From: Lactobacillaceae bacterium
Lineage (GTDB): Bacteria > Pseudomonadota > Alphaproteobacteria > RF32 > CAG-239
Reading direction: 5' to 3'
NCBI GenBank assembly: GCA_031271345.1
Contig: JAISVX010000003.1
Span: forward strand, 167,374-231,373
Length of the DNA stretch: 64,000 nucleotides
Shown here in pieces: positions 24,623 through 55,487 of the stretch. The notes under the pieces are model-generated. The model was not told the origin of the DNA and searched no databases. It was given only the letters and a program-made list of their open reading frames with translations. The translations under genes were made by a program, and so were the position numbers. How positions within the stretch are numbered: position 1 is the first letter of the stretch; the number at the start of each line of letters is the position of its first letter.

Positions 24623-25762
24623 ATGAAAAGGCTGTTGTCAATTTTTAAAAAGGCGGGCGATAATTCGCTTCCTTTGATATTGGGCATTGTTTTAGCGCTT
24701 GTTTGGGCGAATATGGATTACGATGGATACACAGCTTTTTGGCACAATAAAATATTTGGCGTCGTTGATTTGCATTTTCTGGTTAATGATATTTTCATGG
24801 TGTTTTTCTTTGCTTTGGCAGGGGTTGAAATTGTCAGAGCCTTATCGCCGAACGGAAGTTTGTATCCAATGAAAAACGCGGTATCAAACTTGTTTGCGAC
24901 GGCGGGGGGCGTTATTGTACCCGCCGCTGTATTCTTTTTGCTTATATACTTTTTTGGTCATCCAAAATACAGCCACGGCTGGGCAATTCCCACGGCGACG
25001 GATATTGCCATATCTTTACTGTTTGCGCGTATTGTTTTTGGGGAAAAGCACCCGGTCGTAGTGTTCTTGATTATGCTTGCGGTTTTAGATGACGCCATAG
25101 GTCTGGCTATTATTGCGGTTTTTTATCCAGACCCTTCATCGCCGGTGAGGCTGGTTTTTTTCTGTTTTGTGTTGGCGGCAATGCTTTTGGCTTTTATCTT
25201 TAACAGAATGAAAATAAAGCCGTATCTGCCGTATATATTAATTCCCGGCATTATTTCATGGTTTGGCATGTATAAAGCCAATCTGCACCCTTCTTTGGCT
25301 CTTATCTTTATTTTGCCGTTCATTCCAAACAAGAAAGTTTTGCCGTCTGATAAAACTTCTCTGGATAAATTTGAGCATAACTGGAAGTATTTTGTTAGTT
25401 TTGGGCTGGTTTTCTTTGGGCTGGCAAATGCTGGAGTTGAGCTGACAAAGGTTTCCGACTTGGCGATAATTGTTTTCTTATCATTACTGTTTGGCAAAAC
25501 AATCGGTATTTTAGGTTTTGCAAAATTAGCGGGTTTGCTGCGCTTCCCGGTACCTGCTGGGATTAAAACTTCGGAGCTTTTTATTATGAGCTTAATTGCC
25601 TCGGTCGGTCTTACCGTGTCGTTGTTTATATCAAGCATCGCTTATGTTGACTCGGAGCTTCAGGATGCCGCAAAAATGGGGGCATTGTTTAGTTTGCTCA
25701 ACGGGTTTACAGCCGTGATTGCCGCGAAGGTCTTGCTAAGAAAAAAGCCGGCTAAAGAATAG
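24623..25762 (+). CDS. nhaA: Na+/H+ antiporter NhaA
   Basis: ~12-TM protein with NhaA-typical blocks (LAVLDDAIGLAIIAVFY; discontinuous-helix region). The start was chosen at the Met preceded by AGAGA; the ORF track starts at 24593. Confidence 0.8.
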   Translation: MKRLLSIFKKAGDNSLPLILGIVLALVWANMDYDGYTAFWHNKIFGVVDLHFLVNDIFMVFFFALAGVEIVRALSPNGSLYPMKNAVSNLFATAGGVIVPAAVFFLLIYFFGHPKYSHGWAIPTATDIAISLLFARIVFGEKHPVVVFLIMLAVLDDAIGLAIIAVFYPDPSSPVRLVFFCFVLAAMLLAFIFNRMKIKPYLPYILIPGIISWFGMYKANLHPSLALIFILPFIPNKKVLPSDKTSLDKFEHNWKYFVSFGLVFFGLANAGVELTKVSDLAIIVFLSLLFGKTIGILGFAKLAGLLRFPVPAGIKTSELFIMSLIASVGLTVSLFISSIAYVDSELQDAAKMGALFSLLNGFTAVIAAKVLLRKKPAKE

Positions 25763-25825: not shown

Positions 25826-28800
25826 CTAAAATTTGTATTCAACACCGGCTTTAATTTCATAAGAACCGTCCCTCTCAATAATTTTACCCGCTTCGGTAAA
25901 CAGGTTAAGAGATTTGAAGTAATAATCTAATCTGCCTGATATTAGACCTCTGGATTTATCGCTTTCATAGCCCTTCATGTTATAATAGCCCGGCATGCCG
26001 AACATTGTCGCGTTTGAATTGCCGTAAGTATCGCCAAATTCTTGATAGAAAGTGCCGCCAATACGAACTTTTACAGAATTAAAATCGTCAATCTCAAAAG
26101 TTTTCTTCGCATATAAACCAAGCCCGCCTTCAACAGACAAGCTGTTGGAAGATTTAACGGTCAACTGCTGCTTTTCTTTGGTTTTTGTTTGGTATACGCC
26201 CAGAACATTAAACTCTGCCGTTGGTTCAAGCGTGAAGAAACCTAAATCAATGTCTTTTCTTACTTCGTTGGTAACTCCGTAGTAATAATTTTTTGTATCC
26301 GCTTTATAAATATTGCCGGAAACAACTCTGCGGTAATCGCCCCATCCGAGACCAACTCTTGGCATAGATACAAAAGCGATTGTATCTGTTTGATATTTTA
26401 ACGGCGCCAATATGTGGACTAAAGTGTCGTCTCTTTTCGAAGAATTGTCATATTCGCTGTTTAATTGGGTTATTGTGAAACCCGCGCCATAACTGAAATT
26501 GTTGTTATATCTCTTTTGAACCAATCCATAAACAGAATGCGCGTCTTCTTCATAACCCTCAACCGCTCCAGACGCTTCCTGGTCTTTTTGTATGAAGTCA
26601 TAGCCCATCATCGCAACAACTTCGCGAGGGTCGTTATTTGCAAATACGCTGTTGTTAACCTGACGGTTTAAGCTCTTAACAGCTTCAAGATTCTGTCTTG
26701 CAAAACTTGGGAAGAAGTCTAAGCCAAGAAAGTTGTTCACCGCTTTTGTCAAACCGTTTTGATTGTTTGCATTTTTTACTGCATTAAACAGAGTTAACGC
26801 ATTTTGCGCTTTTTTGCTCTCAGTCTCTCCTGACGCGTTATACAAGTCGTAGGCATTATTTAAGTATTTAGCCAGATATTTGTCGGAAACAACTTCGTCA
26901 AACTCTTTCATAGTCATTACAACATCTTTGTTTCCGTCTCTGTTTTCTACCAGTTCCGCGTTGAACATGTAAGAATTTGAAAGCAGTTCTAATTCTGAGC
27001 TGTCGCCGATAAACGCGTTTTCGCTGACAAAAGATTTGTTAAAGCTGTCCGTTGTAATATTAGAGCCGGCATAAACTATGCCTGATATTTCTGGAGCTTC
27101 GTATTTTCCGTCTTTCTCAACAACAATTTTTCCGCCTTTCAAAGTCCAGTCATTAAAGTTAATCGCTGTTGAAGATATGGTTATGCCGCCGCTTCCGGTA
27201 ACAAACTCTGCGTTGTCGCCAATAGAAATATAAGAGGATGCGTTACAATCGTCATCGCTGCAGCTGTTAGTTCCGATTTTTATTGTGCCGTCATTATAAA
27301 CATAAGATGTGTCTGTTGTGGTTCCTACCGCATAGATACCGTTGCCGCTGCCGGTTATATTGATAATACCAGTCGCGGCATTATACACTAATGCGCCGTT
27401 TAAGGCAATTATGCCGGCGCTGGCGGTGTTATTGGATGTTATATTAATAGTGCCTCTATTTACGGCTTTTGAATCTGCGCCGGTAGCATACATGCCATAA
27501 GCTTTTACGGTGTTAGTCGTACTGGAAATGTTTATTGTCGCTCCAACATCGTTTACAATTGCCGCGCCTCCGGTTGTAAACATGCCTATTAGAGAAGTAT
27601 TTGCGGTAGTGCCGCTTAAGGAAATTGTTCCTCTGTTATATGCCTTGCTGTCCGTTCCGGTAACCGCCATTCCATAAGTATCAGCGGCTGCGGTTGTTAC
27701 GGTTATTTTACCATTAGCCATATTTATCAGTTCCGCGCCGTCAACGCCATACATGCCGTATCCGCCCAGCATTCCAATTGAACCGCTGTTTACCGCCTGC
27801 GTGCCTTCGCCTTCCACATACATTCCAGAGCCGGACTGGGCGAGTTTTATAACGCCGCTGCTTAAGTTTGTAATTTTTGCGCCGTCAATAGCGACCATAC
27901 CATAACCTAGCCCTGCGCTGATATTGATTTTTCCGGCGTTTTCTGCCGAGCTTTCTCCAGAGAAAGCAGTCATACCAGTAGCCACGGCATCAATCGTGCC
28001 GTTTGTACCGTTTGTGACCTTGCCGCCCAATGTAGCCTGCATGCCGGAGGTTGTTATATAATCGTCAACGCTTCCGCCGGATATGGTAATTTGACTGTTG
28101 TTTACAGCCGTGCCGCTATTTGAAGTCTGCATGCCTATACCCTGGGATATTTTAATGGTTCCGCCTGATGAATTGGTAACAGTGCCGCCGGATGTCATCA
28201 TTCCAAATGCGTCAACACCTCCGACATATTCTATTGTTCCAGAGTTAAAACCTTCACCGTTTTCAGTATATACGCCGATTGTTCCGTTTCCAGTCAGATT
28301 TATATTTCCCATATTATAGGCTTTACCTTCATTTGCCATCATTCCATAGCTGTCCGCGCCGACAACGTTTAGCTTTCCAGAACTGGTGTTCATTACAACG
28401 CCTGTAGCTCCAGATACGCCCAATCCGACAGAGTTGATTTTGTTAATGTTTATTGTGCCGTTGTTTACGCCTTGTCCGCCATTGGCAAAGACGCCAAAGC
28501 TTTCCTGATCGTTTAATTCAATGGTTCCGTCGTTTCTTGCCGTACCTTCGGTAGTATACATGCCGTAAGAAGCAGGATCCATATCGGAGCCGGTAATGCT
28601 GATTGTAACGCCGGCGGAGTTTACGGATGAACTTCCTGCATTTCCATCAATTCCTATGCCGCCGTTGCTAAGCATTATGCCGGCTTTGTTAAGAATTGTT
28701 CCAGAGCCGGTTGCGGTAATGCCGTATCCGAAGAAACCGCTTATGGTTATGGCTGCATTGTTGGTTATTGAGCCGTTTTCGGCAGAAATGCCCGTGCCAT

Positions 28801-31390
28801 AGTTATTGTTGATGTACGCGCTGTTTCCGACGAGATTTATTTGACCGTAGTTATCAATTGTTGTCGAGCCTTCCCCAACGATACCTGCATTTTGCGTTCC
28901 ATCTAAATTGGAGTTAATGATAATTTTTCCATAGTTATAGACTTTGCCGTTTTCAACATATATGCCAGTTCCGTCCTTGCCGTTAATGTTTATCTCTGCA
29001 TTGGCATTATTTGAGGCTGTGCCGTTATACACAATGCCTGATGACTGAATGCCGGAAGAGTTATCCGCGTCAACATCAATCAATTTAAGGTTTTCAATAG
29101 TTCCGCTATCGCTTAGTATGCCGACGCCGGTTCCTTCTATTTTTACTGTTCCGTTATTAACGATATTGCCTGTCATTGAAGATATTCCATCGCCGCCGCT
29201 TTTCATAGTGATGGTGCCGTCATTGGTGACTTTGCCGTTTTCTGACAAAATGCCGACTCCTTTAAGCTCAAAAGTGATTTTTCCCGAACTTAAGTTGTTT
29301 ACGTTGGCATTTTCAGAATATATACCATAAGACGGGGTAGCAGTTGGGTCAACGTTGTTTACATTGATATTTATCTGCCCGGTATTGTTCACTGTTCCGG
29401 CTACGGCATATAGTCCGTAGTTGTTTTTGCTGACTGACGAAATAATATTTTCAACATTAACGATGCCGTTGTTGTTTAGTGTTCCATATTCAATATATAT
29501 GCCGTAAGAGTCGTCCGCTTTATTAATGTTAACCGTGCCGCTGTTATTAACCGCTGTTCCGGCAGTGTCGTAGTTTGTGCTTCCTTCTCCGACAGGGTTT
29601 CTAATGACCGTAATTCCTTTGCCGCCGCTGTTCATGGTGATAACGCCGGTATTGTTTATTGTTCCGGCGTTTGAGTGAATGCCGGTGCCTGTAGAAGCAA
29701 AATTAATCTGGTTTGTATTGCTTATGCTTCCGCCATGAAGAGAAATCATTCCATATCCGCCGATACTATCCATATTGATAGAGCCGGTATTGGTTAATGT
29801 CGGTTTGCGCACATCAAATTCAGAGTTTGTACCGTTTCCGCGAATGGCAATCATGCCGTATCCTTCGGTGCCGCCTTTAACGCTGATTGCACCTTGGTTA
29901 AGCAAAGTTCCTCCGTGAACTGACAGCATGCCTGCATGAGAACCTGTAAAATCTGCGTCGTCATTTGATTCGACCTCAACATTTACGGTCCCGGTAGAGG
30001 TGTTGGTGGCCGTAGTGTTCGCGTCAGCCCTGATACCGATAATGCCGTTGTTTGCTTCGCGAATGTTTGTGACATAGCTTGATGAGCCGACGAGAGATGA
30101 TTTTACGCTTATTTGACCACTGTTGGTGATTTCAACATAACCGGCTCTGCTTAGAAGTTTTTTACCATTAGTGAAATCTTCTTCAATGTAGCTTCCCATA
30201 CCAACCAGAGCGGTCGCATTAGAAGACGATGTTGAAGTGTTGCTCAAATCGATTACTCCCGTTACCCCGTTAGTAAGTTTTGTAGCGTAAGCTGGAGTTG
30301 GATTGTCTTCCTGGTTTATAATTCTTCCCTGCATGCCGACCAATGTGCCTGCCGTAGCGTTAGAGCTTATGGTTTTGATGTTTTTGTTGTTTAGTATTAA
30401 TCCGTTTGTGTCCGAATATATGCCGATAATTTGGTGTGTGTCAAAAGAACCTTCAAAGCTCATTAATATATCGCCGCCGTTTGTTGCCTGTCCGTTATCG
30501 CTGGCAATCATTCCCACAGTTCCGCTTGCGGCATTGATTTGGATTATATTGTTATTAAATGCTGTGGCTCCATTTCCCAAAGCTACCAAGCCTGCGGTAA
30601 CGTTTTTAAGGTTTATTGTTCCGTTATTCGTTAGGGAAGTGTTTTGGTATGCTTTAAATGCGACCTGAATATATTTTGCATATTCAAGAATGTTGCTGTT
30701 AAAATCCATCCAGGAAAGAAGGTATTTGCCATCCTCGAACATTCTGTCATTATCAAAAGTTAAACTTTCTGTATTTGTGTATGACGAGCCATTTTGAGCT
30801 TTTTTATATATTGCCTGGTATCCGGCTGGAGCATCATAAGGTTTTAATGTTCCGGCAAAATCTCCGAGGTTGTCGTTTGTAGCTTTGTATCCATGACCAC
30901 CACCGCCTCCGCCGCCTCCGCCACCGCCAGCGGCAAGGGCAACTCCCGCGCCGGCAAGCAATAATCCGCCGATAACCCAGGTTTTGGTAGAAATAACGAA
31001 CTCACCTTTGTCAAACCTTGTGTAAGCGGCTCTTGGCGTTTCTTCCAGCCCGACCACGCCGCTTGAGTTCATGAAAGAATTGTATTGTTGTCTTGGAATA
31101 TTTTGGGTACATCCGTGTTTTGGGTTGGAGCCTGCGGCTCTAAAAGCATTATATGCTGTTTTATTGTTTCTTTTTATGGCATAACATAAACCAGTGTCCC
31201 CGTTTCTGTCTACGGTATCAATATTCATTCCGCGCTGGACAGCCGCTCTCAATGCCCTTACGTTTCCAGAAGAAGCGTAGCCGTACATTTGTGAAAGATT
31301 TAGAGGAGGAATATTTGCATGACTTGCAGTACTGGTAAAATAGAAACACACTGCAGTAATTATTGAAATACTTTTACGAAAATTTCCCAT
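25826..31390 (-). CDS. Giant type Va autotransporter (1854 aa) with an ankyrin-like N-terminal module, a Gly11 tract, a long beta-helix passenger and a C-terminal beta-barrel
   Basis: N-terminal signal peptide. 1.5 ANK-like repeats (NGDTGLCYAIKRNNKTAYNAFRAAGSNP). A second hydrophobic segment then G11 (DNA 30896-30928). Hundreds of G-x-G/NxGTI beta-helix repeats. The C-terminal barrel ends ...IKAGVEYKF. Confidence 0.8.
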   Translation of the reverse strand: MGNFRKSISIITAVCFYFTSTASHANIPPLNLSQMYGYASSGNVRALRAAVQRGMNIDTVDRNGDTGLCYAIKRNNKTAYNAFRAAGSNPKHGCTQNIPRQQYNSFMNSSGVVGLEETPRAAYTRFDKGEFVISTKTWVIGGLLLAGAGVALAAGGGGGGGGGGGHGYKATNDNLGDFAGTLKPYDAPAGYQAIYKKAQNGSSYTNTESLTFDNDRMFEDGKYLLSWMDFNSNILEYAKYIQVAFKAYQNTSLTNNGTINLKNVTAGLVALGNGATAFNNNIIQINAASGTVGMIASDNGQATNGGDILMSFEGSFDTHQIIGIYSDTNGLILNNKNIKTISSNATAGTLVGMQGRIINQEDNPTPAYATKLTNGVTGVIDLSNTSTSSSNATALVGMGSYIEEDFTNGKKLLSRAGYVEITNSGQISVKSSLVGSSSYVTNIREANNGIIGIRADANTTATNTSTGTVNVEVESNDDADFTGSHAGMLSVHGGTLLNQGAISVKGGTEGYGMIAIRGNGTNSEFDVRKPTLTNTGSINMDSIGGYGMISLHGGSISNTNQINFASTGTGIHSNAGTINNTGVITMNSGGKGITVIRNPVGEGSTNYDTAGTAVNNSGTVNINKADDSYGIYIEYGTLNNNGIVNVENIISSVSKNNYGLYAVAGTVNNTGQININVNNVDPTATPSYGIYSENANVNNLSSGKITFELKGVGILSENGKVTNDGTITMKSGGDGISSMTGNIVNNGTVKIEGTGVGILSDSGTIENLKLIDVDADNSSGIQSSGIVYNGTASNNANAEININGKDGTGIYVENGKVYNYGKIIINSNLDGTQNAGIVGEGSTTIDNYGQINLVGNSAYINNNYGTGISAENGSITNNAAITISGFFGYGITATGSGTILNKAGIMLSNGGIGIDGNAGSSSVNSAGVTISITGSDMDPASYGMYTTEGTARNDGTIELNDQESFGVFANGGQGVNNGTININKINSVGLGVSGATGVVMNTSSGKLNVVGADSYGMMANEGKAYNMGNINLTGNGTIGVYTENGEGFNSGTIEYVGGVDAFGMMTSGGTVTNSSGGTIKISQGIGMQTSNSGTAVNNSQITISGGSVDDYITTSGMQATLGGKVTNGTNGTIDAVATGMTAFSGESSAENAGKINISAGLGYGMVAIDGAKITNLSSGVIKLAQSGSGMYVEGEGTQAVNSGSIGMLGGYGMYGVDGAELINMANGKITVTTAAADTYGMAVTGTDSKAYNRGTISLSGTTANTSLIGMFTTGGAAIVNDVGATINISSTTNTVKAYGMYATGADSKAVNRGTINITSNNTASAGIIALNGALVYNAATGIINITGSGNGIYAVGTTTDTSYVYNDGTIKIGTNSCSDDDCNASSYISIGDNAEFVTGSGGITISSTAINFNDWTLKGGKIVVEKDGKYEAPEISGIVYAGSNITTDSFNKSFVSENAFIGDSSELELLSNSYMFNAELVENRDGNKDVVMTMKEFDEVVSDKYLAKYLNNAYDLYNASGETESKKAQNALTLFNAVKNANNQNGLTKAVNNFLGLDFFPSFARQNLEAVKSLNRQVNNSVFANNDPREVVAMMGYDFIQKDQEASGAVEGYEEDAHSVYGLVQKRYNNNFSYGAGFTITQLNSEYDNSSKRDDTLVHILAPLKYQTDTIAFVSMPRVGLGWGDYRRVVSGNIYKADTKNYYYGVTNEVRKDIDLGFFTLEPTAEFNVLGVYQTKTKEKQQLTVKSSNSLSVEGGLGLYAKKTFEIDDFNSVKVRIGGTFYQEFGDTYGNSNATMFGMPGYYNMKGYESDKSRGLISGRLDYYFKSLNLFTEAGKIIERDGSYEIKAGVEYKF

Positions 31391-45481: not shown

Positions 45482-45557
45482 GGTCCCATCGTCTAGAGGC
45501 CTAGGACGAGACCCTCTCAAGGTTTAAACACGAGTTCGAATCTCGTTGGGATCACCA
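45482..45557 (+). tRNA. tRNA-Glu (anticodon CUC as folded by hand)
   Basis: 76 nt. Acceptor GGTCCCA/TGGGATC. D-loop AGAGGCCTA. Anticodon stem AGACC/GGTTT with loop CTCTCAA. T-arm ACGAG-TTCGAAT-CTCGT. Encoded CCA. Confidence 0.8.
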
Positions 45558-45594
45558 ATACAAAACAGCCCCCTTTGCGGGGCTGTTTTGTATT
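45558..45594. terminator. Bidirectional terminator abutting the tRNA-Glu 3' end
   Basis: 16-bp perfect stem AATACAAAACAGCCCC / GGGGCTGTTTTGTATT with loop CTTTGC. Confidence 0.7.
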
Positions 45595-45756
45595 GGTGGT
45601 AATTCAAACAGAGGTTTGAACTCGGAAAAAGAGTTCGACTGCCAGACCATGCAAAATGTGAGCAGAGGCGAGGAGCTTTAGCGACACCCAGCCAATCTCG
45701 TTGTCGCTGCAAAGCGGTGAAGATTGCTATCCGCTGGGATTACCATCCTGAAAATA

Positions 45757-46788
45757 TCATTCTATTGGTTTTATATATTTTTTATGAGTTTCCTCAGATG
45801 TTGGCAGGTAAGTATAAATAGACTCATTTGCAAAGCTGTATCTGCAGTTATCTTCTTTATATCTATAGAAAAATGCAGCCATCCGCTTTAATCCTTTAAA
45901 GCTTAATTCGTAAAATGAAACGATGTCTTTTTTATCAAGGTCAATACCTACTTGTTTTATATTATATAATGACACAATCCCCGCGTTCTTTTGCAGCAGG
46001 ACTGGACAGGTTTCTTTGCCGGTTTTTTCCGCAAATTCCTGACAATTATAAATAATATCATACTCCATGCATAACACAATATTTCCATTGTCTATCAAAT
46101 CCTTGGTTGTTTTCTTATCATCGGTATGTCCGCAGTTTTTAAACAAATAAACTATATTAGACTTTGCTTCCGCCAAAATCGCGGAATGGTACGAATCTAT
46201 GGGGTCATCAAAATAAAGATAGCCGGACGGATAAGAATCTACAACTTCTACATTTGGATATAATTCGTTATCTGCGCCTTTATGAAAAAACTTTTTTGGC
46301 AGATAAATCGCATTATATTCGGGAGCGGGAGTATCCATTTCACAGGTTTTAAAAAAATCTTGGGTGCTTGTATAATCAATTAAACATGCAAGAACGGGAA
46401 TTCCCAAAATTGTCAAGAAAGGAATTGCCAAATATTTTTTTGCCTTCCAAAAAGTGATTGCGGCAATCATCAGCAATGGAAGTATAAAAAGAGGACGGAA
46501 CATTGCTTCCGGGTTGCTGTTTGAAACAAGTTTTAGATACGGAATATAAAGAAATACGATAGATAGTGTTCCAAGCAAAATATATTTTGTTTTCCGCTCT
46601 GTTTTATGATGTATTAAAAGTCTTGCGGTCGCCGCCATTGCGAAAGCAATATAGCATATAAGTATAAACACCTTCTCCATGTTCATATACATGTTTAGTG
46701 TCGACAAATAAAGCAGCGATAAACCGAGCATAAACATAAATATGTTTAAGATTTTATCACTACCTTTTTCTTTGTTTGTTTCAGCCAT
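45757..46788 (-). CDS. Hypothetical polytopic membrane protein with a C-terminal soluble domain (343 aa from MAETNKEK)
   Basis: The ORF track extends to 47091. The ATG at 46788 is preferred because AAAGGGGG lies 4 nt upstream. ~6 TM helices. Confidence 0.45.
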   Translation of the reverse strand: MAETNKEKGSDKILNIFMFMLGLSLLYLSTLNMYMNMEKVFILICYIAFAMAATARLLIHHKTERKTKYILLGTLSIVFLYIPYLKLVSNSNPEAMFRPLFILPLLMIAAITFWKAKKYLAIPFLTILGIPVLACLIDYTSTQDFFKTCEMDTPAPEYNAIYLPKKFFHKGADNELYPNVEVVDSYPSGYLYFDDPIDSYHSAILAEAKSNIVYLFKNCGHTDDKKTTKDLIDNGNIVLCMEYDIIYNCQEFAEKTGKETCPVLLQKNAGIVSLYNIKQVGIDLDKKDIVSFYELSFKGLKRMAAFFYRYKEDNCRYSFANESIYTYLPTSEETHKKYIKPIE

Positions 46789-47210
46789 ATTTCCCCCTTT
46801 GAATATCATAAATAATCTATAGCCAATCTTGTATAAAATCAAGGCTGTCTTTACAAACAAAATATAGTGTTGACGCCGGAAAATATCAGGGTAATATATT
46901 TTTATGTAACTAACGGAGGTTTTTATGAAAAAAATACTTATAGTCTGCTTTATAATTTTATTGTCTGGCTGTACTAAAGCCGGTCCTTTTGTAACTAATA
47001 TTTCTTCGGACGGCGCTGGCGGTTTAAATATAGAAAAATGCAACGTACATTTGAACGCTTTTATGGGTACCGTATCAAACGATAACTGCATTTCTTCTTA
47101 TATAAAAGTTAAATAAGATGATTTTTTATTTTATATAGCCGTAAAAGTTGACAAAAAAGTTGAAAAGGTGTATTATTAAACATACGCAATTATCTTTTGG
47201 GATAAAATAA

Positions 47211-48383
47211 ATGGAAGAAACTGAAAACAAAAAAGAAAAAGAAGTAAAGTCGGATAATTCTTTTGAAGAAGCAAAAGAAAAGAAAGCCGCAAGAACAGGC
47301 AAAATCATGGGTTTCTTTGCAGGTTTGACGGCATTTGGCGCCATGGCGGCTAATGCCGGAAATCTTCCAAATATTGAAGAAACCGCGGATAAAGAGCTTA
47401 ATGATCCAAAAAACAAAAAAGAAGTGGTTGTTGAAAATAAAAAAGGCGATGTCGTATATTCAAGATCAGATACGTCGGATAGATATTACGTCAACCCGGA
47501 GGACTATGCTCAGGCGGCGGCAGCATTAAAAGCAGAGGCGTCTTCTCGAGAATATAAATCCCCTGAAGAATTTAAAAAGCTAAGCAAGGAAGAAAAAGCC
47601 GACCATCTTAGAAGCGGAACAAGCGATGGTTTGAACTTTGTGACAACAAAGATGGAAGCTCATGAAGAGGCAAATCAGGAAAAATATACTTTCTTGGAAA
47701 AATGGTATAAAAAGGGAAAAGAAAAGAAGAGTTTGGAAACAGACTACAGTAGAACCGATGTATCCCCAAGCTTAAGCGAGATTTTTGATAAAGGCAAATA
47801 TAACAGGGATCATGAGCAGGTTAGCGTTGACCAAAGAGAGGTCAATCTGCGCGGCAGCGGCATACCAAAAGACAACACCAAGACGGTATTTAGGCAGATT
47901 ACGCCGCATGAATCATCCGACAGACAGCGTCCTCTTAACAAAGTGGACGAGTTCGTTCAGAGAGACGAGTTCCGTTCCGACGGTACGCTCAAGAGGGAAA
48001 TAGGCGGCGATACGCATGCTTCCATTGATAGAAATGGCGGTTATAAAGTTGAAACCTCAAGTTCTGTAAAAGATTTTAAGAGGGATGGAGAGACTGTAAG
48101 AAAAACTACGGAAGAACGAGTTACGGAGACTCCGACAAGCCGTGAGAGTGTAAAAACAGTTTCAAAGGCTAGAAAAGACAAAACCAAGGTCAGAGAGCTT
48201 GTCGAAACGCTTAGAGGAACAAGAAGAACCAAAGGCACTTATGATGCGGAAGGAAAGCCGATTGGAAAAGTGAAAACAAAAACCAAAGACTTTGATGACA
48301 AGCAGGTTGAGCAGAATATTCAAGAGCAGCAGGAAAAAGGTCTGTCTCCTGCAATGAAGCACTTCATGGAGGTTAGCCGTTAG
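47211..48383 (+). CDS. Highly charged low-complexity (K/E/R/D/T-rich) protein with one hydrophobic segment
   Basis: Clean 390-aa ORF with a terminator at 48408-48434 downstream. No family recognised. Confidence 0.4.
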   Translation: MEETENKKEKEVKSDNSFEEAKEKKAARTGKIMGFFAGLTAFGAMAANAGNLPNIEETADKELNDPKNKKEVVVENKKGDVVYSRSDTSDRYYVNPEDYAQAAAALKAEASSREYKSPEEFKKLSKEEKADHLRSGTSDGLNFVTTKMEAHEEANQEKYTFLEKWYKKGKEKKSLETDYSRTDVSPSLSEIFDKGKYNRDHEQVSVDQREVNLRGSGIPKDNTKTVFRQITPHESSDRQRPLNKVDEFVQRDEFRSDGTLKREIGGDTHASIDRNGGYKVETSSSVKDFKRDGETVRKTTEERVTETPTSRESVKTVSKARKDKTKVRELVETLRGTRRTKGTYDAEGKPIGKVKTKTKDFDDKQVEQNIQEQQEKGLSPAMKHFMEVSR

Positions 48384-48532
48384 TCAGGCGTGTCAATAAA
48401 ATATTTTAAGGGAGCTTAACAAGCTCCCTTTTTCGTGTATCAATTATCAACATAAACTTTATTTATCTTTTATTTTTGGTTTTGCTGTGGTAATTTTCTT
48501 ATACTTAAATAATGAGTTAAGGGAGAAAATCA

Positions 48533-48841
48533 TTGAAATTTAAAATAGCGTTAATTGCGGCAATATCTGTGTTAGGAGCTTGCTCAATACTTTCAGATAC
48601 TGGAACAGCGGTACCAACCACAACGACTGGCAAATTAAAGGCCTGTTCATTTGAAGAAGCAGGCAGCATGATAAAAAGCGGCAAAGCTTTTACTCAAAGC
48701 ATAAGCGTCAGCGCTGATGAAATATCCGAGGCTTGTTTAAAGAAACTGGCTCTTCAATCCGCTGGTCTTGAAGGTCAAGCAACATCTGATGCGACAAGCG
48801 CCCTTCAGACTCTGTTGAATGCTGCGTCTGGTAAAAAATAA
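48533..48841 (+). CDS. Small lipoprotein
   Basis: Lipobox VLGACS. 102 aa. Terminator downstream. Confidence 0.4.
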   Translation: MKFKIALIAAISVLGACSILSDTGTAVPTTTTGKLKACSFEEAGSMIKSGKAFTQSISVSADEISEACLKKLALQSAGLEGQATSDATSALQTLLNAASGKK

Positions 48842-48903
48842 GATTGCTAAAAAACATTAAAACCTCCATATTTGGAGGTTTTTTTATATGAAAAGAGACA
48901 CGA

Positions 48904-49584
48904 TTAGTGGAGTTTAATGCGCTTTTTGCATACTTTGTTTTCTATCTCGCGCCCTTTATCGCCGTCTAGCTTTTCGTGTTCGATGTCGGTTTCATCCTGA
49001 AGCTGCTGAGTGAAGTTTTGAACAATGTAGTTGTATTCCTGGGTTTGCTGGTCTACGGCTTCCTGCATTGTATATTTGGAGCTTTTCTTTACCAAAATCG
49101 GTTTTATATCTTTATACGCCTTTTTTAGATTTGGCGGCACAACTCGTAAAAAATGCTCAAAAGTTCTAACATTAATCTGCATGTGTGTTTCTTCATGCCT
49201 TAAAACTAAATTAAAGTTGCACGAGCCTGATTCTAAGTCATTTGAGACATATATGGTGGGGGTCGTCATGCCGATATATATTTCTATTTCTTTAGGCACA
49301 AGACATTCGCCGCCGTTTCTTTCTCTTAACGAGTATGTGGATTTTGAGGAGCTTTTATATTTTACCGAGGCAAGTCCCCAAATTTTTTTTCCAGACATTT
49401 TTTGCAGTTCTTTGTTTGATTTTGTGTAATCATATTTGAGTTTGCCATAAGACGATTTAAAGATAATTTTGGGGTTTACTGAAATATTGCATCTTTCAAA
49501 AGTTGTGTTTGCAAAACTCTCAGAAGAGTTTACAATTAAAAGAATAGCGGCTATTATAAATAAAAATTTTCTCATGAAAATCAA
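48904..49584 (-). CDS. Secreted HExxH-motif protein (DUF922-like predicted Zn-metallopeptidase)
   Basis: Signal peptide MIFMRKFLFIIAAILLIVNSSESFA. LRHEETHMQIN contains HEETH (HExxH). Confidence 0.45.
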   Translation of the reverse strand: MIFMRKFLFIIAAILLIVNSSESFANTTFERCNISVNPKIIFKSSYGKLKYDYTKSNKELQKMSGKKIWGLASVKYKSSSKSTYSLRERNGGECLVPKEIEIYIGMTTPTIYVSNDLESGSCNFNLVLRHEETHMQINVRTFEHFLRVVPPNLKKAYKDIKPILVKKSSKYTMQEAVDQQTQEYNYIVQNFTQQLQDETDIEHEKLDGDKGREIENKVCKKRIKLH

Positions 49585-49611
49585 TATAACATAAATTTTC
49601 TTAATATAGAA

Positions 49612-50055
49612 TTGAAAATGATAAAATATTTGTTCAAGTATGCGCTAATATCTTTTTTTGTCTTTGCTGGCTCGACGGCTTTAGCTCAGGGAGCTTATGT
49701 GAGAAAACAACAACAGCCGAGTTTTTTTGTTCCCGAGGGAGAGATTACTCAAAAGGAGGAGCTTCCTCCGGCGCAATTTAGAGCCGCGCTTCCGCCCGCA
49801 CCCGAGGTTTCGACAAACAAATATGACAAAGGCGTCAGGATGGATAAAAAAAACGTATACAGCGACGAACCGCTTGATGTTGAAGAATATAAGTACTATT
49901 CTTCCAATGAAAAGGTTTCCCCATATAAAAAAGCATTTGACGAATATGTCAGAGATTTGCAGTATATGAAGAATTATAATGAAATACCGATTAATCAGCA
50001 AAAAGAAAAAGATTTGGGAAAAATGAACTCTGAAGGAATTTTTAGAGTTTGGTGA
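49612..50055 (+). CDS. Secreted hypothetical protein, 147 aa
   Basis: Signal peptide ending ALAQGA. Pro-rich N-terminal region. Confidence 0.35.
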   Translation: MKMIKYLFKYALISFFVFAGSTALAQGAYVRKQQQPSFFVPEGEITQKEELPPAQFRAALPPAPEVSTNKYDKGVRMDKKNVYSDEPLDVEEYKYYSSNEKVSPYKKAFDEYVRDLQYMKNYNEIPINQQKEKDLGKMNSEGIFRVW

Positions 50056-50120
50056 TAAAAATGTGGTTGATTATGATATTTATATCGTATATAAACTCCT
50101 GACAAACAAGGAGTTTAAAG

Positions 50121-50510
50121 ATGAAAAAAAGACTTATTGATGAAGCAAACAAAATTGTTGGTAAGTTTCAATTAGATGGATTTCGAGGAAACTCTGCGGG
50201 TACAGTAGCTTCCGCATTGATAACAAAAGACGGAAATATTTATACGGGTATATGCATAAGCATGGCATGCGGGATCGGTTTTTGCGCAGAAGCTTCGGCT
50301 GTCGCTGAAATGCTTAAAAACAGAGAAACAAAAATAGAAATGATTGTAGCCGTCAGCAACGAAGGCAAAATAATACCTCCATGCGGAAGATGCCGCGAGT
50401 TATTGGCGCAGGTCGACAAAGACAATCTTTCTACCAAAATCGTTGTTGATGACGGCGAGATAAAAACGTTGAAAGAAATTTTCCCTGACATCTGGATAGA
50501 TAAATTTTAA
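50121..50510 (+). CDS. cdd: Cytidine deaminase, small tetrameric (CDA / blasticidin-S-deaminase-like) family
   Basis: Zn ligands CAEASA and PCGRCRE. 129 aa. Confidence 0.75.
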   Translation: MKKRLIDEANKIVGKFQLDGFRGNSAGTVASALITKDGNIYTGICISMACGIGFCAEASAVAEMLKNRETKIEMIVAVSNEGKIIPPCGRCRELLAQVDKDNLSTKIVVDDGEIKTLKEIFPDIWIDKF

Positions 50511-50621
50511 AAAGAAAATTTTAATAATATGGGGTTGACAAAATAGTGAAAAAAACACATAATCAAGTGTTTTTTACGCATTAATTCACTCTTATTTTAA
50601 AAACTTTTAAATCTCAACTTT

Positions 50622-51269
50622 ATGAATTTGAAAAATGATGGGACCATTGCCTTAATCGTTGGCAAAGGTAATTCAGGAAAAGGAACCCAGAACCAAAAAC
50701 TGCGTGACAGGTATGACTACGGGTATTTCTCCAGCGGAGATATACTGCGTGAGGTAGCCAAAGGTGATACGGGAATCGGCCGTATAGTAAAAGGCTACAT
50801 GGAAAAGGGCATGAATGTCCCCGATGAGCATGTCAACCCCGCAGCCTTGCAGTTTCTTCAAGGGGGAGCAAGGCACAAGCTTCTGGACGGCTATTCGCGT
50901 AACATCGAACAAGCAAAGTTCCTTCTTGAGAACTTCGGGAAGGACAGGATTGTTATCGTGAATCTGCTGTGTTCCGACCAGCTGTGCATCGACCGCGCTT
51001 CGAACCGCCGACAGTGTAAGTTCTGCAAGGAAACACAAGTCGAGAACACCAGCGGAACCTGCGTTTTCTGCCGCACCGAAGAAGCTCTCGTCATCCGACC
51101 CGACGACGCGATAATCAGAGATCGTCTGATTACGTATCGGAGGGAGACGGTTCCGATGATTGAGTATTTCAGGGAACAGGGCGTGACGATTTTCGACATC
51201 GACGTCGAAGCGGGAACCGAAGCTACGGCTCCCATAATCGCGGAGTTCCTCAAGCCGTATTTCGGCTAG
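50622..51269 (+). CDS. Adenylate kinase-like NMP kinase with a Cys4 LID domain; compositionally atypical (GC-rich)
   Basis: P-loop GKGNSGKGTQ. NMP-bind FSSGDILREVAKGDTGIG. LID CIDRASNRRQCKFC...CVFC...RPDD. GC is clearly higher than the flanks. Confidence 0.65.
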   Translation: MNLKNDGTIALIVGKGNSGKGTQNQKLRDRYDYGYFSSGDILREVAKGDTGIGRIVKGYMEKGMNVPDEHVNPAALQFLQGGARHKLLDGYSRNIEQAKFLLENFGKDRIVIVNLLCSDQLCIDRASNRRQCKFCKETQVENTSGTCVFCRTEEALVIRPDDAIIRDRLITYRRETVPMIEYFREQGVTIFDIDVEAGTEATAPIIAEFLKPYFG

Positions 51270-51297
51270 TCCAAATGAGCGCTTAAGACACTTGAGA

Positions 51298-51345
51298 AAT
51301 AAAGCCTTATCCCAACGCAAGTTGGCATAAGGCTTTATTTTTTTA
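51298..51345. terminator. Compound bidirectional terminator
   Basis: 13-bp stem AATAAAGCCTTAT / ATAAGGCTTTATT enclosing a mini-hairpin CCAAC-GCAA-GTTGG, followed by a T-run. Confidence 0.65.
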
Positions 51346-52239
51346 AATTAACCGGCTTATTTCTTCAGCGTAGTCGGTTATTATATCAATTTCTAAGTTT
51401 GGATATTTTTTTGAAAAAGCGGCTAATGTTAATACGTCTTGTTTTGCCAGCTCATTTTCCTCAGGGTTTCTTTCCATATATTTCCATGTTCTTACAGCAA
51501 TTTTGTTATCATTGCAAAATCGCATGTTTATATCGTTTAATGAGTCTATTGCAGCATGAAAAGCATTTATATCCGTCTTGTTTACAACCTTTTTTATATT
51601 CTCAAGGGTAAATGTCAGATATTTATCGTCAGTGTCTGGATAAACAGGCTGTCCTCCCGCCTCATGAAAGGTGAATAACTGGGCGGTGTCGGCGTCTTTT
51701 TTTAAAGTTTTCAGCTTTATTAAATTAGACGTCGCAAAGGATGACCATATTATTCTTGAAAACAAGCGGGAAGGGGTCAGTTTAACGATTTGCTCAATTA
51801 TTGATGGATTTTGCAGTTCGGGCAGCGAATTTTTCGGTTCAATCGTTCCTTTGATTTCGATATTTACGCTTAGGTTGGGATATTCTTCAAGCAGACCCAT
51901 AAGCTTTTCATAAGTAAGAAATTCGCTTGTTTTTCCGCCCATGCCTGTTTTCATTTTCATTATTTGTTCAAACGTCATATTGCTGGCATAGTCGCCTTTT
52001 TTCGCCTGAAAAGAATGGAGGCTTAGGTCGTTTGTATGGGTGGCGATGAGTTTTCTGTCTTTTGTCATTACAACGTCTGTTTCAACGCAAAAGCCGCTGG
52101 TAAAAGCGGCTTTTATAGACTCTTCAGAATTTTCCGGCGGCAGATTTTTAAGGTTTAATCCCTTTGCGTCGTTTGATGTAAGATATTCTCGGTTTATATC
52201 TGTGCATCCAAATTTTCCGCGATGACAGAATATTTTCAT
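51343..52239 (-). CDS. Glycerophosphodiester phosphodiesterase (GDPD family)
   Basis: N-terminal IFCHRG catalytic His motif. TIM-barrel GDPD layout. Confidence 0.75.
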   Translation of the reverse strand: MKIFCHRGKFGCTDINREYLTSNDAKGLNLKNLPPENSEESIKAAFTSGFCVETDVVMTKDRKLIATHTNDLSLHSFQAKKGDYASNMTFEQIMKMKTGMGGKTSEFLTYEKLMGLLEEYPNLSVNIEIKGTIEPKNSLPELQNPSIIEQIVKLTPSRLFSRIIWSSFATSNLIKLKTLKKDADTAQLFTFHEAGGQPVYPDTDDKYLTFTLENIKKVVNKTDINAFHAAIDSLNDINMRFCNDNKIAVRTWKYMERNPEENELAKQDVLTLAAFSKKYPNLEIDIITDYAEEISRLI

Positions 52240-52877
52240 TATTCTGTCACTCCATCACAATAACGCTGCAGGGTTTCAAAAATTTTTGTATAATATTTCT
52301 CGCCGTGGGGAGCCATATCGCCTGTTGTTATATCTTTTTCTTCTTTTTTGTAAGAATTGTCGTCATTGCGATATAAACCGTTTATTTTAGCATGCTTTTT
52401 TCTGCCGGAAACCAGCTCAAGCAAATCTTGAATAACCGCTTCGTAGACGCCGTCAACTTCTTCCGGCTGCATCTTTAAGTTTTCGAGTTTGGCGTCTGTT
52501 TTTAAAACATAAGTGGGATTAAACTCTTTATTTATCATATTCTCTACCATAATGTTTTGAATATTTGTAAACAGTTTTACCAGTTTCTCCGGCTCAACTT
52601 TTAAGCCGATTTCTTCCTCAATTTCTCTAATGCCTTGTTTTGCGGTTTCTCCAGCCGCTAAATGCCCGGCGGATGAAATGTCCAGCATATTAGGGTAGAG
52701 ATCCTTATCTTTGCCTCTTAACTGAAGCCACACAATGTGTTTGCCATCTTTTGAAGGTTTAACAATCCAGCAGTGAAATGCCTTGTGCCATAATCCTTCA
52801 TGATGAGCCTGAGATTTCATTGCCGTGCCAAGAAAGTTCATCTCGCTATCAAAAATATCAATTAATTCATCAGCCAT
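52239..52877 (-). CDS. NUDIX hydrolase
   Basis: Nudix box GHLAAGETAKQGIREIEEEIGL. Stop overlaps the GDPD start. Confidence 0.8.
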   Translation of the reverse strand: MADELIDIFDSEMNFLGTAMKSQAHHEGLWHKAFHCWIVKPSKDGKHIVWLQLRGKDKDLYPNMLDISSAGHLAAGETAKQGIREIEEEIGLKVEPEKLVKLFTNIQNIMVENMINKEFNPTYVLKTDAKLENLKMQPEEVDGVYEAVIQDLLELVSGRKKHAKINGLYRNDDNSYKKEEKDITTGDMAPHGEKYYTKIFETLQRYCDGVTE

Positions 52878-52894
52878 GAGATTTTCCTAAATTA

Positions 52895-53095
52895 TTATCT
52901 TTTTTCGTAATCATAATCTTCGTTAACAATCGTTTTAATCGCTCTTTTTGCCGCCGTAGAGTTATCATCAGTCTGCATATTGGCAACGCTGTTGTTTCCG
53001 CTTAATTTATCGGCTTCAATTTTCTGCATTAGGAAGTAGCCTCCGACGCCGATTAAAGCAAGTAATAAAATATATTTGAACATGTTCTTCTCCAT
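52895..53095 (-). CDS. Small single-TM protein, 66 aa
   Basis: Hydrophobic helix YILLLALIGVGGYFLM. Weakly supported. Confidence 0.3.
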   Translation of the reverse strand: MEKNMFKYILLLALIGVGGYFLMQKIEADKLSGNNSVANMQTDDNSTAAKRAIKTIVNEDYDYEKR

Positions 53096-53199
53096 AAAAA
53101 TATTGTTCTGTTTGAATAGTATATTACCTTCAAGCTTATTGTAAACAGAAATACTTTTGCCAGTGTAAAAAGGACTGTCGTTGCGGCAGGCTTTTTTTA

Positions 53200-53547
53200 T
53201 TATTTGCTATGGAGTTCGGAAATTTGCTCTATCACTTTGTTTTTATATTCATTTCCCCATTCAAGGGCAGAATCGATTATGGGTTTAAGGCTTTCTCCGA
53301 GCGTAGTCAATGAATATTCTACGCGGGGAGGAATCTGCGCATAAGCTTCGCGGATTAGAAGCCCGTATTCTTCCAAAGCCTTGAGATTCTCTGTAAGAAC
53401 CTTCTGGGTAATGTCTCCAATATCTTTTTTGAGTTCTCCAAAACGCTTGGTTCCATGCATAAGTCTGTTTATTATAATCAGCTTCCAACGAGTGCCAATT
53501 AAGTCTAAGATTATGTTATCTTTAAAAAATAAATTTTCATCCACCAT
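53200..53547 (-). CDS. HxlR-family winged-helix transcriptional regulator
   Basis: NRLMHGTKRFGEL...TQKVLTENLKALEEYGLI matches the HxlR HTH signature. Confidence 0.75.
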   Translation of the reverse strand: MVDENLFFKDNIILDLIGTRWKLIIINRLMHGTKRFGELKKDIGDITQKVLTENLKALEEYGLLIREAYAQIPPRVEYSLTTLGESLKPIIDSALEWGNEYKNKVIEQISELHSK

Positions 53548-53686
53548 TTTTAAATCTCGCTATTAGTTGAAAAACCAGCGTTAGTACCTTTTGGATACTA
53601 TAACACTTAAAAGTACCTACTTTACACAGATTATAATAACCAATTATATATATCAATAAAATTTGTAAATTATCCAAAATTAAGGA

Positions 53687-54931
53687 GTGAAGATGGGAAA
53701 AAAACTAAATTTTTTATTGATGTGCGGACTTGGTTTGGCTGCTGCAAGCACAGCTAAAGCAAGCGGTTATCAATTAAACGAATATTCTGTAACAAACTTG
53801 GGTCGTGCGTTTGCCGGTGTCGGCGTGGTTGGTGACGACTACTCTGCCATAGCGTTCAACCCTGCTGGAATGACCTTAAAAGGCTCAGGCGGTCAGCTTG
53901 GCGTCAGCGTTGTCGAGATGAACTCTGATACCAGAGGAAAACTTAACCTCAATGGCGGCGGTGTAATTGGCGACAGTCCAAAAGGAAGATTAAGATTATA
54001 TAAAGTTCTTCCTCACGGTTTTGGTCAATACAAAATCAATGACAAGGCTTATGTCGGTTTAGGTGTATATTCTCCTTTTGGTCTCGCATCAAAATATAAC
54101 GCTTATTGGTTTGGCGCAAACCATGGTATAAGAACTGAGCTTGAAGTTGTTGACGTGGCTGCAAGTTTTGCGTATAAATTTACTAACCAATGGTCAGCCG
54201 GCGGCGCTGTTATTTACAGATATGTTCACGGCAACCTAATCAATACTCCGTCTCCTCTTTTTCCTAAATCAAGAAATCAGATGGATTTGGACGGCTGGGG
54301 CTGGGCATATAACTTTGGCGTTATGTATGAGCCTGTTCAGGATACTCGTTTTGGCGTGGCATACAGGCTGAACTCAGGTCATACCGTTAAAGGAAAGCAT
54401 AAAATTAAAAAACTTAATCCTGCGGTAAATGGCGCATATCCTGCTGAAACAACTATGACTCTTCCTAACCAGCTGACATTATCCGCATACCATAAGCTGA
54501 ACTCTAAGTTTGGATTGTCTGGTACTGCGCGCTGGACTAAATGGGATGTGTTTGATGATTTCGTTCTGCACTCACAGTATAATGGCGGTACAACAGAGAT
54601 TATACCTGAAAACTGGAAAAATGTCTGGACATTCTCTGCCGGCGTGGATTACTACTACAGCCCGGAATGGACATTTAGATTCGGAGTTTCGACAGATCCT
54701 ACACCGATTAAAAGCCCTGAATTCCGCACAGCCAGAATTCCTGACGCGGACAGAACTTGGACAACGCTTGGCGTTTCATACAAATATAACAATATGACAT
54801 TTGATGTCGGTTATGCTCACTTGTTTATGAAAACTGCAGAAATCAGAAACCGTAATGCTGTTACAACGTTGAATGCGAAAGCTGTCGGTTTGAGCAATAT
54901 GTATGCAATCCAGTTCCAATATGATTTTTAA
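53687..54931 (+). CDS. fadL: FadL/OmpP1-family outer-membrane transporter for long-chain fatty acids and other hydrophobic compounds
   Basis: Signal peptide. N-terminal hatch motif (NLGRAFAGVG). C-terminal ...FQYDF ends in Phe. Confidence 0.8.
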   Translation: MKMGKKLNFLLMCGLGLAAASTAKASGYQLNEYSVTNLGRAFAGVGVVGDDYSAIAFNPAGMTLKGSGGQLGVSVVEMNSDTRGKLNLNGGGVIGDSPKGRLRLYKVLPHGFGQYKINDKAYVGLGVYSPFGLASKYNAYWFGANHGIRTELEVVDVAASFAYKFTNQWSAGGAVIYRYVHGNLINTPSPLFPKSRNQMDLDGWGWAYNFGVMYEPVQDTRFGVAYRLNSGHTVKGKHKIKKLNPAVNGAYPAETTMTLPNQLTLSAYHKLNSKFGLSGTARWTKWDVFDDFVLHSQYNGGTTEIIPENWKNVWTFSAGVDYYYSPEWTFRFGVSTDPTPIKSPEFRTARIPDADRTWTTLGVSYKYNNMTFDVGYAHLFMKTAEIRNRNAVTTLNAKAVGLSNMYAIQFQYDF

Positions 54932-54973
54932 TATCTGTTAAACCAAAATAAACCAATGAATTAAAAATCAATA

Positions 54974-54998
54974 GAAAGCCTCCATTAAGGAGGCTTTC
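54974..54998. terminator. Bidirectional rho-independent terminator
   Basis: GAAAGCCTCC-ATTAA-GGAGGCTTTC; near-identical stem to the terminator at 12214. Confidence 0.7.
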
Positions 54999-55013
54999 TA
55001 TTTTGGTTCTTAC

Positions 55014-55268
55014 CTAACGATTTAACTCTCTTATTCCTTCATAAGTGTCGTCGTAAATTTCTCTTCCAGCCTCTTTTGCTGAATTTTCAATATCTTGCTC
55101 AAGCTGACGCAGTTGGTTTTCAGCCTCGTTTTCAATTGAATTTTCGGTTTGCTCGATTTGGTTTTCCACATTTTGCTTAAGTTCCTGGATATTCTGTTTG
55201 CCAGAGCTGCCGCCAAACCAATAATAAAGCCCCATTGCTATTGCCGCGATTATTATTATCCTAATCAT
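55014..55268 (-). CDS. Small membrane protein with a coiled-coil tail
   Basis: Start moved to MIRIIII..., which has GGGGG upstream; the track ORF extends to 55349. TM helix IIIIAAIAMGLYYWF, then a Q/E-rich helical tail. Confidence 0.4.
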   Translation of the reverse strand: MIRIIIIAAIAMGLYYWFGGSSGKQNIQELKQNVENQIEQTENSIENEAENQLRQLEQDIENSAKEAGREIYDDTYEGIRELNR

Positions 55269-55411
55269 CTTTGCCCCCATGAAAATTGATATTGAGCATA
55301 ATATAATACTTTCGTTAAAAAATTCAAGCGGGCGCTTGCGTATCGTCAATTAAATCCAAAAACAACATTTAAAACAAAAAAATGACCGCAAGGGTCACAT
55401 TTTTGTTTTGA

Positions 55412-55487
<76 letters not shown>

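Follow-up and report, generated by a model that had tools for sequence, protein, structure and literature searches.

The closest described counterparts of the gene reported here are the Bacillus-type zinc-LID adenylate kinases (ADKs), represented by those of Bacillus subtilis (1P3J) and G. stearothermophilus (1ZIN) and by reconstructed ancestors (5G3Y/5G3Z), and the ADK of Desulfovibrio gigas (2XB4, 3L0P, 3L0S), a Gram-negative enzyme with a metal-containing LID. The gene lies in a stretch of 64,000 nucleotides (the window; positions 167,374 to 231,373 of contig JAISVX010000003.1, assembly GCA_031271345.1) from a metagenome-assembled genome (MAG) of a gut-associated alphaproteobacterium, and encodes a 215-residue ADK of unusual guanine-plus-cytosine (GC) content. 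We consider it probable, though well short of certain, that this kinase is a xenologue gained through lateral transfer, the likeliest donor being an unsampled, GC-richer bacterium of the alphaproteobacterial radiation to which the host belongs.

The window kinase has the same long-type fold as the Bacillus-type enzymes (template modelling (TM) score 0.70–0.78), a LID whose two CxxC pairs occupy the same positions, and an identical catalytic set of Lys, Arg, and Asp residues. It differs from them in being only ~27–33% identical, in having an inter-cysteine hairpin of 11 rather than 16 residues and Asn for the second P-loop Gly, and in being encoded by a stand-alone gene outside the spc operon. 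The D. gigas enzyme, third in our structural search (TM 0.72), is ~27% identical and has a longer LID. The gene and its two diagnostic motifs are located as follows.

50622–51269, + strand: adenylate kinase coding sequence and GC-rich island; 215 amino acids, long type with shortened Cys4 LID; GC 0.509, third-codon-position GC (GC3) 0.611
50661–50687, + strand: P-loop G14-K-G-N-S-G-K-G-T22, with Gly16 for Pro and Asn17 for the second Gly of the canonical GxPGxGKGT
51015–51071, + strand: codons of the LID metal site, C132-x2-C135-x11-C147-x2-C150, from alignment to Bacillus-type LIDs

Composition and codon usage of the kinase gene

The kinase gene is the GC maximum of the window, at 50.9% compared with 39.0% window-wide, and the only 648-bp segments that reach its GC content (0.09%) all overlap it. 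The GC-rich tract (~50630–51290) matches the extent of the open reading frame (ORF), and its flanks fall to 18–35% GC. A first-pass annotation, made from the letters of this DNA, had put the gene at about 50% GC and its surroundings at 33–36%; the first figure is confirmed, and the second proved somewhat too low. The deviation is strong in both windowed GC and codon usage. GC3 is 0.611 against 0.383 ± 0.030 (maximum 0.459) in the 46 other ORFs (z ~7.6), with no 215-codon block drawn from host genes exceeding 0.512, and scoring its codons by host usage gives a mean log-likelihood of −0.124 against +0.106 ± 0.026 (z ~−8.8), the sole negative value. Individual codon choices depart strongly from those of the host: AGA supplies 6% of Arg codons rather than 56%, TTC is used at 90% rather than 23%, CTG at 44% rather than 18%, and AAG at 54% rather than 23%.

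This excess involves both C-ending and G-ending codons. The C-index (C/(C+T)) of the kinase is 0.630 (z 3.2; binomial P ~1e-6), higher than in all 46 host genes, and the G-index is 0.591 (z 2.8; binomial P ~3e-6). Host genes show a negative correlation between the two indices (r = −0.70), and the likely highly expressed adhE and accC are raised in C-ending codons only.

Relatives of the kinase

When 1.84 billion cluster representatives were searched exhaustively with HMMER, 11,594 adk-like proteins were detected. The only single-domain proteins clearly above background were P0006 and P0009 (41–42% identity, ~165 bits), followed by P0038, P0048, and P0158; the long high-scoring proteins in this search contain multiple ADK domains, so that their scores sum over repeats. 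Across the ~15 billion proteins searched overall, none was more than 42% identical to the kinase, and a literature search returned nothing specific.

Together with the window protein, these five relatives (P0006/L002, P0009/L005, P0038/L003, P0048/L004, and P0158/L006, protein and contig respectively; 32–42% identical to it) form a six-protein clade that shares the P-loop Asn17, invariant throughout, an 11-residue spacer between the CxxC pairs, and a FLKPYFG-like C-terminus, with all members on AT-rich contigs and one LID Cys lost in L004 and L006. Four of these five relatives have adk beside a glucokinase gene (glk) in convergent orientation, with a small ORF intervening in L005; the L006 contig is too short to show this neighbour.

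L002, 10001–11615: adk and glucokinase gene, convergent
L003, 8753–10449: adk and glucokinase gene, convergent
L004, 24–1772: adk and glucokinase gene, convergent
L005, 112–2310: adk and glucokinase gene, convergent

Glucokinase and kinase diverge in step among these relatives (45–53% and 32–43% identity, respectively). No glucokinase gene was detected in the 64-kb window, where the kinase instead sits between a cytidine deaminase-like gene (cda) and a GDPD-family phosphodiesterase gene. The L002 contig also carries an HtpG that is 66% identical and a clade-specific orphan, both common to the relatives of the host, so at least this contig belongs to the same broad radiation. Two further associations were considered and rejected: L002 and L168, from the same sample, as one genome, on the basis of composition, and an adk beside htpG in L110, where the ORF encodes an ankyrin-repeat protein.

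In a neighbor-joining tree of 88 adks, the six-member clade groups with the adk of L086, a human-gut alphaproteobacterial MAG (bootstrap 81). The L086-type adks (L086, P0188, P0190, P0199, and P0212) are 47–93% identical among themselves and 29–31% identical to the window protein; they are stand-alone genes in genomes whose composition nearly matches that of the nearest relatives of the host (tetranucleotide r ~0.97). They have a similarly short Cys4 LID (spacer 10), a non-ribosomal locus, and a GC3 excess in an AT-rich genome, and differ in having a canonical P-loop, GAPGSGKG, and an excess that is C-ending only where tested (L169). No L086-type adk was found in the sample that yielded the host; the remaining members of this type derive from different samples. 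The canonical alphaproteobacterial adks of L043, L056, L067, and L073 (alphaproteobacterial or proteobacterial MAGs) belong to the same family and also have a Cys4 LID, but their spacer is 15 residues, they are ~230 amino acids long, they lie in the ribosomal-protein cluster in a secY-adk-rpsM arrangement, and their GC3 differs from that of their neighbors by only −0.08 to +0.03. No secY/rpsM region was found among the loci retrieved from relatives of the host. The window gene does lie outside the secY-adk context kept by these four MAGs, as the first-pass annotation had pointed out in proposing lateral acquisition, and its expectation of a ribosomal context holds for Alphaproteobacteria in general, but this is weak evidence: the gut-type clade relatives are all stand-alone, and since a stand-alone short-LID adk is the norm in this group, context alone says little.

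An elevated GC3 relative to the gene's own neighbors was detected at the following loci, with the window kinase showing the largest excess in the set (+0.228).

L086, 9983–10627: adk, GC3 excess +0.21
L169, 7520–8167: adk, GC3 excess +0.17
L004, 24–683: adk, GC3 excess +0.10
L002, 10001–10627: adk, GC3 excess +0.09
L003, 8753–9400: adk, GC3 excess +0.09

At 74 adk loci used as controls, the mean difference is −0.001 ± 0.045 and the largest +0.115. In L169, L002, and L003 the enrichment is confined to C-ending codons (C-index z 2.5–3.6, G-index z −0.1 to 0.4), so that the glucokinase-linked clade members differ from the window kinase both in the smaller size of their excess and, in the two tested (L002 and L003), in its restriction to C-ending codons. 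This C-ending enrichment looks like the pattern expected from translational selection, which may act strongly on this one gene. An ancient transfer that has yet to ameliorate cannot account for the excess of the lineage, because synonymous sites are saturated between proteins that are only 32–43% identical. A GC excess in this lineage must therefore be resolved into a C-ending and a G-ending component before it is taken to indicate horizontal transfer. The window copy, in which G-ending codons are also in excess, is read as carrying a genuine GC-mutational signature layered over this family habit.

Origin of the kinase gene

We favor lateral acquisition because the kinase is an ORF-sized island with non-host codon usage, is displaced from glucokinase, and has no homologue above 42% identity. 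The last value contrasts with the genes collinear between the window and the closest relative of the host, L167, most of which are 64–87% identical, and with host RecJ, for which more than 100 homologues at 65–80% identity were found. We infer both that a transfer occurred and where the donor belongs: a GC-richer member of the same radiation is suggested because gut alphaproteobacterial adks are the closest kin of the clade and because genomes of the radiation reach GC3 values of 0.55–0.70, and the donor is taken to be unsampled because the kinase codons fit no sampled GC-rich relative well. The sampled GC-rich relatives of the host were themselves considered as donors and rejected, since their GC3 fits and their codon preferences do not. 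The lateral acquisition that the first-pass annotation had suggested from composition is partly supported: the gene is a strong, ORF-sized outlier in composition and codon usage, but part of its GC3 excess is a family habit, and only the G-ending excess and the magnitude of the deviation are particular to the window copy. Phylogeny, which had been proposed as a means of identifying the donor, places the clade with the L086 adk (bootstrap 81) and gives no indication of a distant donor; the host's own clade spans 30–55% GC.

Under lateral transfer, the adk of a small, fast-diverging, stand-alone clade in AT-rich gut-type Alphaproteobacteria would have come from a donor of roughly 50% GC and would now form an ORF-sized GC island between the native cda and the native GDPD gene, apparently transcribed from its own sigma-70-type promoter and ending at a hairpin shared with the GDPD gene. 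Its GC3 would then consist of two layers. The first would be the C-ending preference common to its adk relatives, which resembles what translational selection would produce in a housekeeping gene under high expression, and the second, the G-ending excess together with non-host Arg, Leu, Lys, and Glu codons, would be the real foreign signature. If so, lateral transfer within poorly known gut Alphaproteobacteria brought in, and possibly replaced, an essential housekeeping enzyme. The kinase itself adds a new, very divergent and rare variant to a known enzyme family; it probably arrived by an ordinary mechanism, out of a related lineage and not a distant one.

Several observations weigh against this interpretation. 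The stand-alone short-LID adks have a GC3 excess in resident-looking copies as well, so composition alone is a weaker indicator of transfer here than usual, and the L086 adk is intermediate, with a G-index (z 1.8) that indicates some G-ending excess in a relative that looks resident. The kinase codon log-likelihood in the sampled GC-rich relatives is ~0, compared with +0.13 to +0.21 for their own genes. Internal nodes within the clade are poorly resolved (at most 52%, with the window kinase and L002 joined at a bootstrap of 42). The representative library merges relatives above 50% identity into one entry, which limits any statement that no close homologue exists. A word-indexed homology search with the kinase as single query returned only the kinase itself, and its profile version missed P0006 and P0009, both rows of its own query alignment, so absence in that search is weak evidence. 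No meaningful flanking repeats were found, and no integrase or transposase among the neighbors scanned (~45.7–55 kb); among phage, plasmid, and viral-contig sequences, no relative of the kinase exceeded 33% identity. In the closest relatives, the 10 kb on either side of recJ stop short of the kinase region. A metagenome scan for the syntenic cda–GDPD site anchored on GDPD found nothing, and in the AccC-anchored loci of 27 relatives synteny was not conserved beyond accB-accC.

The alternative that survives best, which we regard as rather unlikely though deserving of serious weight, is that the kinase is the native, vertically inherited adk, made GC-rich by gene-specific synonymous selection acting across the short-LID lineage and brought to its present neighborhood by ordinary rearrangement. 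It gains from the fact that every relative examined is GC3-enriched against AT-rich neighbors when the control loci are not, that the relatives' enrichment is C-ending, as host adhE and accC also lean, that the nearest relatives lie in the host's own radiation, that the relatives themselves (L086, L169, and the glk-linked set) occupy differing neighborhoods, and that mobility signatures are lacking. It is harder to reconcile with the G-ending excess, which opposes the expression-linked trend of the host, unlike in L169, L002, and L003, with a deviation that is the largest in the set, with the absence of any homologue above 42% when the genes collinear with L167 are 44–87% identical, and with the missing glucokinase linkage. 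This explanation keeps its weight because of the caveats given above for the homologue searches and for the cda–GDPD site in the closest relatives.

A broader scenario for this radiation of 30–55% GC, which we consider doubtful, takes one of two forms: either a stand-alone short-LID adk replaced the ancestral secY-linked gene and was itself swapped repeatedly between lineages (its alleles being at most 42% identical), or the clade with the P-loop Asn is a second, specialized, mobile nucleoside monophosphate (NMP) kinase.

Transfer from a distant GC-rich donor among Actinomycetota, Firmicutes, or archaea is highly improbable. When 185,579 species genomes were searched with a three-sequence alignment, nothing exceeded 36% identity and only generic adks were returned; the best matches (32–36% identity) were spread over Actinomycetota, Elusimicrobia, DPANN archaea, and Chlamydiae, and an Olsenella adk, 36% identical, shares the short Cys4 LID (spacer 10). 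Such scattered matches could suggest a remote source, but they form a generic background, and the specific relatives, at 41–42% identity with the Asn P-loop, 11-residue spacer, and similar C-terminus, lie on AT-rich contigs tied to the host radiation in a clade that groups with the gut alphaproteobacterial adk.

Predicted activity and LID metal site

The hallmarks of adenylate kinase that the first-pass annotation had recognized in the 215-residue ORF, including four LID cysteines, are borne out by family profile, alignment, and fold. The Pfam ADK profile (PF00406) matches the kinase at 89.2 bits (cutoff 26.8; 3.9e-25) over profile positions 1–150 of 151. Every NCBIfam match is to an adk-family or UMP/CMP-kinase model; the best, TIGR01351, scores 122.9 against a trusted cutoff of 168, and 20 other models of these families likewise score below cutoff, which shows that the kinase is divergent. 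All 93 matches shown in a sequence search of the PDB are adenylate kinases, among which zinc-LID types and reconstructed ancestors rank highest. An AlphaFold2 model was obtained with high confidence (predicted local distance difference test (pLDDT) 93.9, predicted TM score 0.87; LID region pLDDT ~96–97), and the top 50 Foldseek matches of this model in the PDB are all long-type ADKs (TM 0.70–0.80), with the CORE, NMP-binding, and LID fold.

Catalytic residues are retained throughout: K20, R43, R93, Q97, and R125 align with E. coli K13, R36, R88, Q92, and R119, and R129, R159, D161, D162, and R168 with E. coli R123, R156, D158, D159, and R167, in agreement with the PDB alignments. The P-loop GKGNSGKGT retains the GKGT core and the catalytic Lys20. 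Among residues other than Gly, Asn is the one most readily accommodated in a left-handed backbone conformation, and P-loops of the form APPNGGKG occur in other adk-like proteins, one Melainabacteria protein among them. From these features the kinase is predicted to be an active AMP:ATP phosphotransferase (ATP + AMP <-> 2 ADP). The LID cysteines C132, C135, C147, and C150 align with the zinc ligands of the Bacillus-type enzyme (B. subtilis positions C130, C133, C150, and D153), which suggests that the Cys4 LID is a structural site with predicted metal binding that would stabilize the LID. The hairpin between its CxxC pairs, at 11 residues, is shorter than the usual 13–18 and five shorter than the 16 of the Bacillus type; a spacer of 10 is found in the Olsenella adk and in one gut alphaproteobacterial group. 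This variant, with its 11-residue Cys4 LID hairpin and P-loop Asn, is uncharacterized, and as adenylate kinase is a model for LID dynamics it may be of interest to enzymology.

The first-pass annotation had also suggested a broader-specificity NMP kinase that exploits host nucleotides, which found no support. A second, specialized NMP kinase with another acceptor or phosphate donor beside a canonical adk is very unlikely. The scores below all NCBIfam adk cutoffs, an NCBI product name that reads only 'nucleoside monophosphate kinase', the unusual P-loop Asn, and the glucokinase-linked relatives, which suggest a conserved metabolic pairing, would fit such an enzyme. However, all AMP-site and catalytic residues are kept in canonical form, including Q97 (E. 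coli Q92); the UMP-CMP kinase model TIGR01359 scores far lower, at 65.5 against a cutoff of 207.6 and over the N-terminal half only; and no canonical adk is seen beside any clade member on the partial contigs available.

Gene boundaries and neighboring genes

The features surrounding the kinase gene are as follows.

50121–50510, + strand: cytidine deaminase-like gene with CDA fold, tetrameric type (Pfam PF00383, 27.9 bits, cutoff 25)
50535–50563, + strand: sigma-70-type promoter-like site, TTGACA-17-CATAAT, an 11/12 consensus match of presumed function
50673–51320, − strand: antisense ORF of 215 amino acids in the codon register of the sense kinase, a by-product of codon choice
51297–51344, bidirectional: intrinsic-terminator-like hairpin with 20-nt arms (95% complementary), a 4-nt loop, and an A-tract and T-run at its sides
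51343–52239, − strand: GDPD-family phosphodiesterase of native composition, convergent with the kinase and in an operon with a NUDIX gene (52239–52877)

The promoter-like site lies in a 111-bp AT-rich spacer 5' of the kinase (18–28% GC). The hairpin folds at −27.4 kcal/mol (z −7.9), a stability matched by none of 200 shuffled sequences; it is common to the convergent kinase and GDPD genes and should terminate both. The earlier description of a monocistronic gene that ends at a strong terminator is upheld. An Rfam scan around the kinase detected no riboswitch or other RNA element at E <= 0.1.

The cda-like gene lies outside the presumed transferred segment: its composition is native (GC3 0.362, codon log-likelihood +0.125) and it has its own Shine-Dalgarno sequence. 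All NCBIfam cytidine deaminase models score it below cutoff (best 62 against 74). As this gene is also unlinked to the kinase in every relative, there is no evidence that the two arrived together as a salvage module.

Two long antisense ORFs overlap the kinase as first described (50673–51320 and 50891–51253). We considered the former as a real overlapping gene and rejected it, as it is not conserved in relatives. It stays open because the sense codons TTA, CTA, and TCA, which are antisense stops, are nearly absent from the kinase (2 observed against ~6.7 expected from host usage), and the longest in-register antisense stretch in L003, L004, and L005 is only 46–53 amino acids, which together identify it as a by-product of codon choice rather than a gene.

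That the locus is an assembly or binning artefact, a chimeric contig with a foreign fragment, as the wrong NCBI label of the source MAG might hint, can be dismissed as having almost no probability, because an independently built Logan assembly is 100% identical over 45528–55461 (9.9 kb, both kinase junctions included), so the arrangement is no assembly chimera, and the GC-rich tract is a single ORF with host-composition DNA on both sides, a host-style promoter, and a shared terminator. The Logan contig, L001, begins inside a tRNA-Glu gene (at 45528; tRNA 45482–45557) and stops inside a tRNA-Phe gene (at 55461; tRNA 55412–55487), which probably reflects conserved tRNA sequences in the assembly graph. 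These two tRNA genes flank the 10-kb segment that contains the kinase, and no integrase is present there.

The host genome and its radiation

The public taxonomic label of the source MAG, 'Lactobacillaceae bacterium', is shown to be wrong: the host falls among gut-associated Alphaproteobacteria. Window genes that back this assignment include those for GcrA (20662–21216), a cell-cycle regulator characteristic of Alphaproteobacteria, the outer-membrane protein FadL (53687–54931), and MlaA/MlaC homologues. Host RecJ (14941–16701) has more than 100 homologues at 65–80% identity, the named sources being 'Alphaproteobacteria bacterium', gut 'Azospirillum sp.' MAGs, and 'Candidatus Scatocola faecigallinarum', and an AccC-anchored metagenome scan recovered 27 relatives at 83–86% identity, mainly from human-gut metagenomes. 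These AccC-defined relatives have 39–55% GC and GC3 of 0.34–0.70, a range that brackets the GC3 of the kinase. When relatives defined by AccC (83–86%) or RecJ (77–80%) are taken together (L087–L112, L134, L167, and L168), GC spans 30–55% and GC3 0.18–0.70, an unusually wide spread for proteins so closely related.

Fourteen genes are collinear between the window and L167, the closest relative (RecJ 80%), at 44–87% protein identity (most 64–87%); the GC of L167 is 30%, compared with 34% in L168 and 39% in the window. The nhaA gene (24593–25762, + strand), which has the highest GC3 (0.459) and among the lowest codon scores of the 46 genes other than the kinase, is missing from the otherwise collinear junction of adhE and a giant ORF in L167, and may thus be another recent acquisition, unless L167 has lost it. 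The 1854-residue ORF at 25826–31390 (− strand) has no Pfam match; its L167 counterpart of 1802 residues, 69% identical over the 235 residues available, has faint Ank/BigA matches only. Several further large or medium ORFs in the window have no family match. In L168 (RecJ 77%), a gene for a TraG/VirD4-type coupling protein of a type IV secretion system (10311–12518) lies with ORFs of unknown function downstream of recJ-DUF502, where the window has degT and mlaA-mlaC, which suggests a conjugative element in a close relative.

We also detected a 226-residue protein (48904–49584, − strand) without a Pfam family, whose N-terminus resembles a signal peptide and whose homologues (31–35% identical) were found only in contigs of the host radiation (L087 8193–8813, L088, L090, L091, and L002 1–622). 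Its gene lies ~0.7 kb upstream of accB in L087, L088, L090, and L091 and ~6 kb from it in the window, where orf147, cda, the kinase, GDPD, NUDIX, HxlR, fadL, and tRNA-Phe stand between the two.

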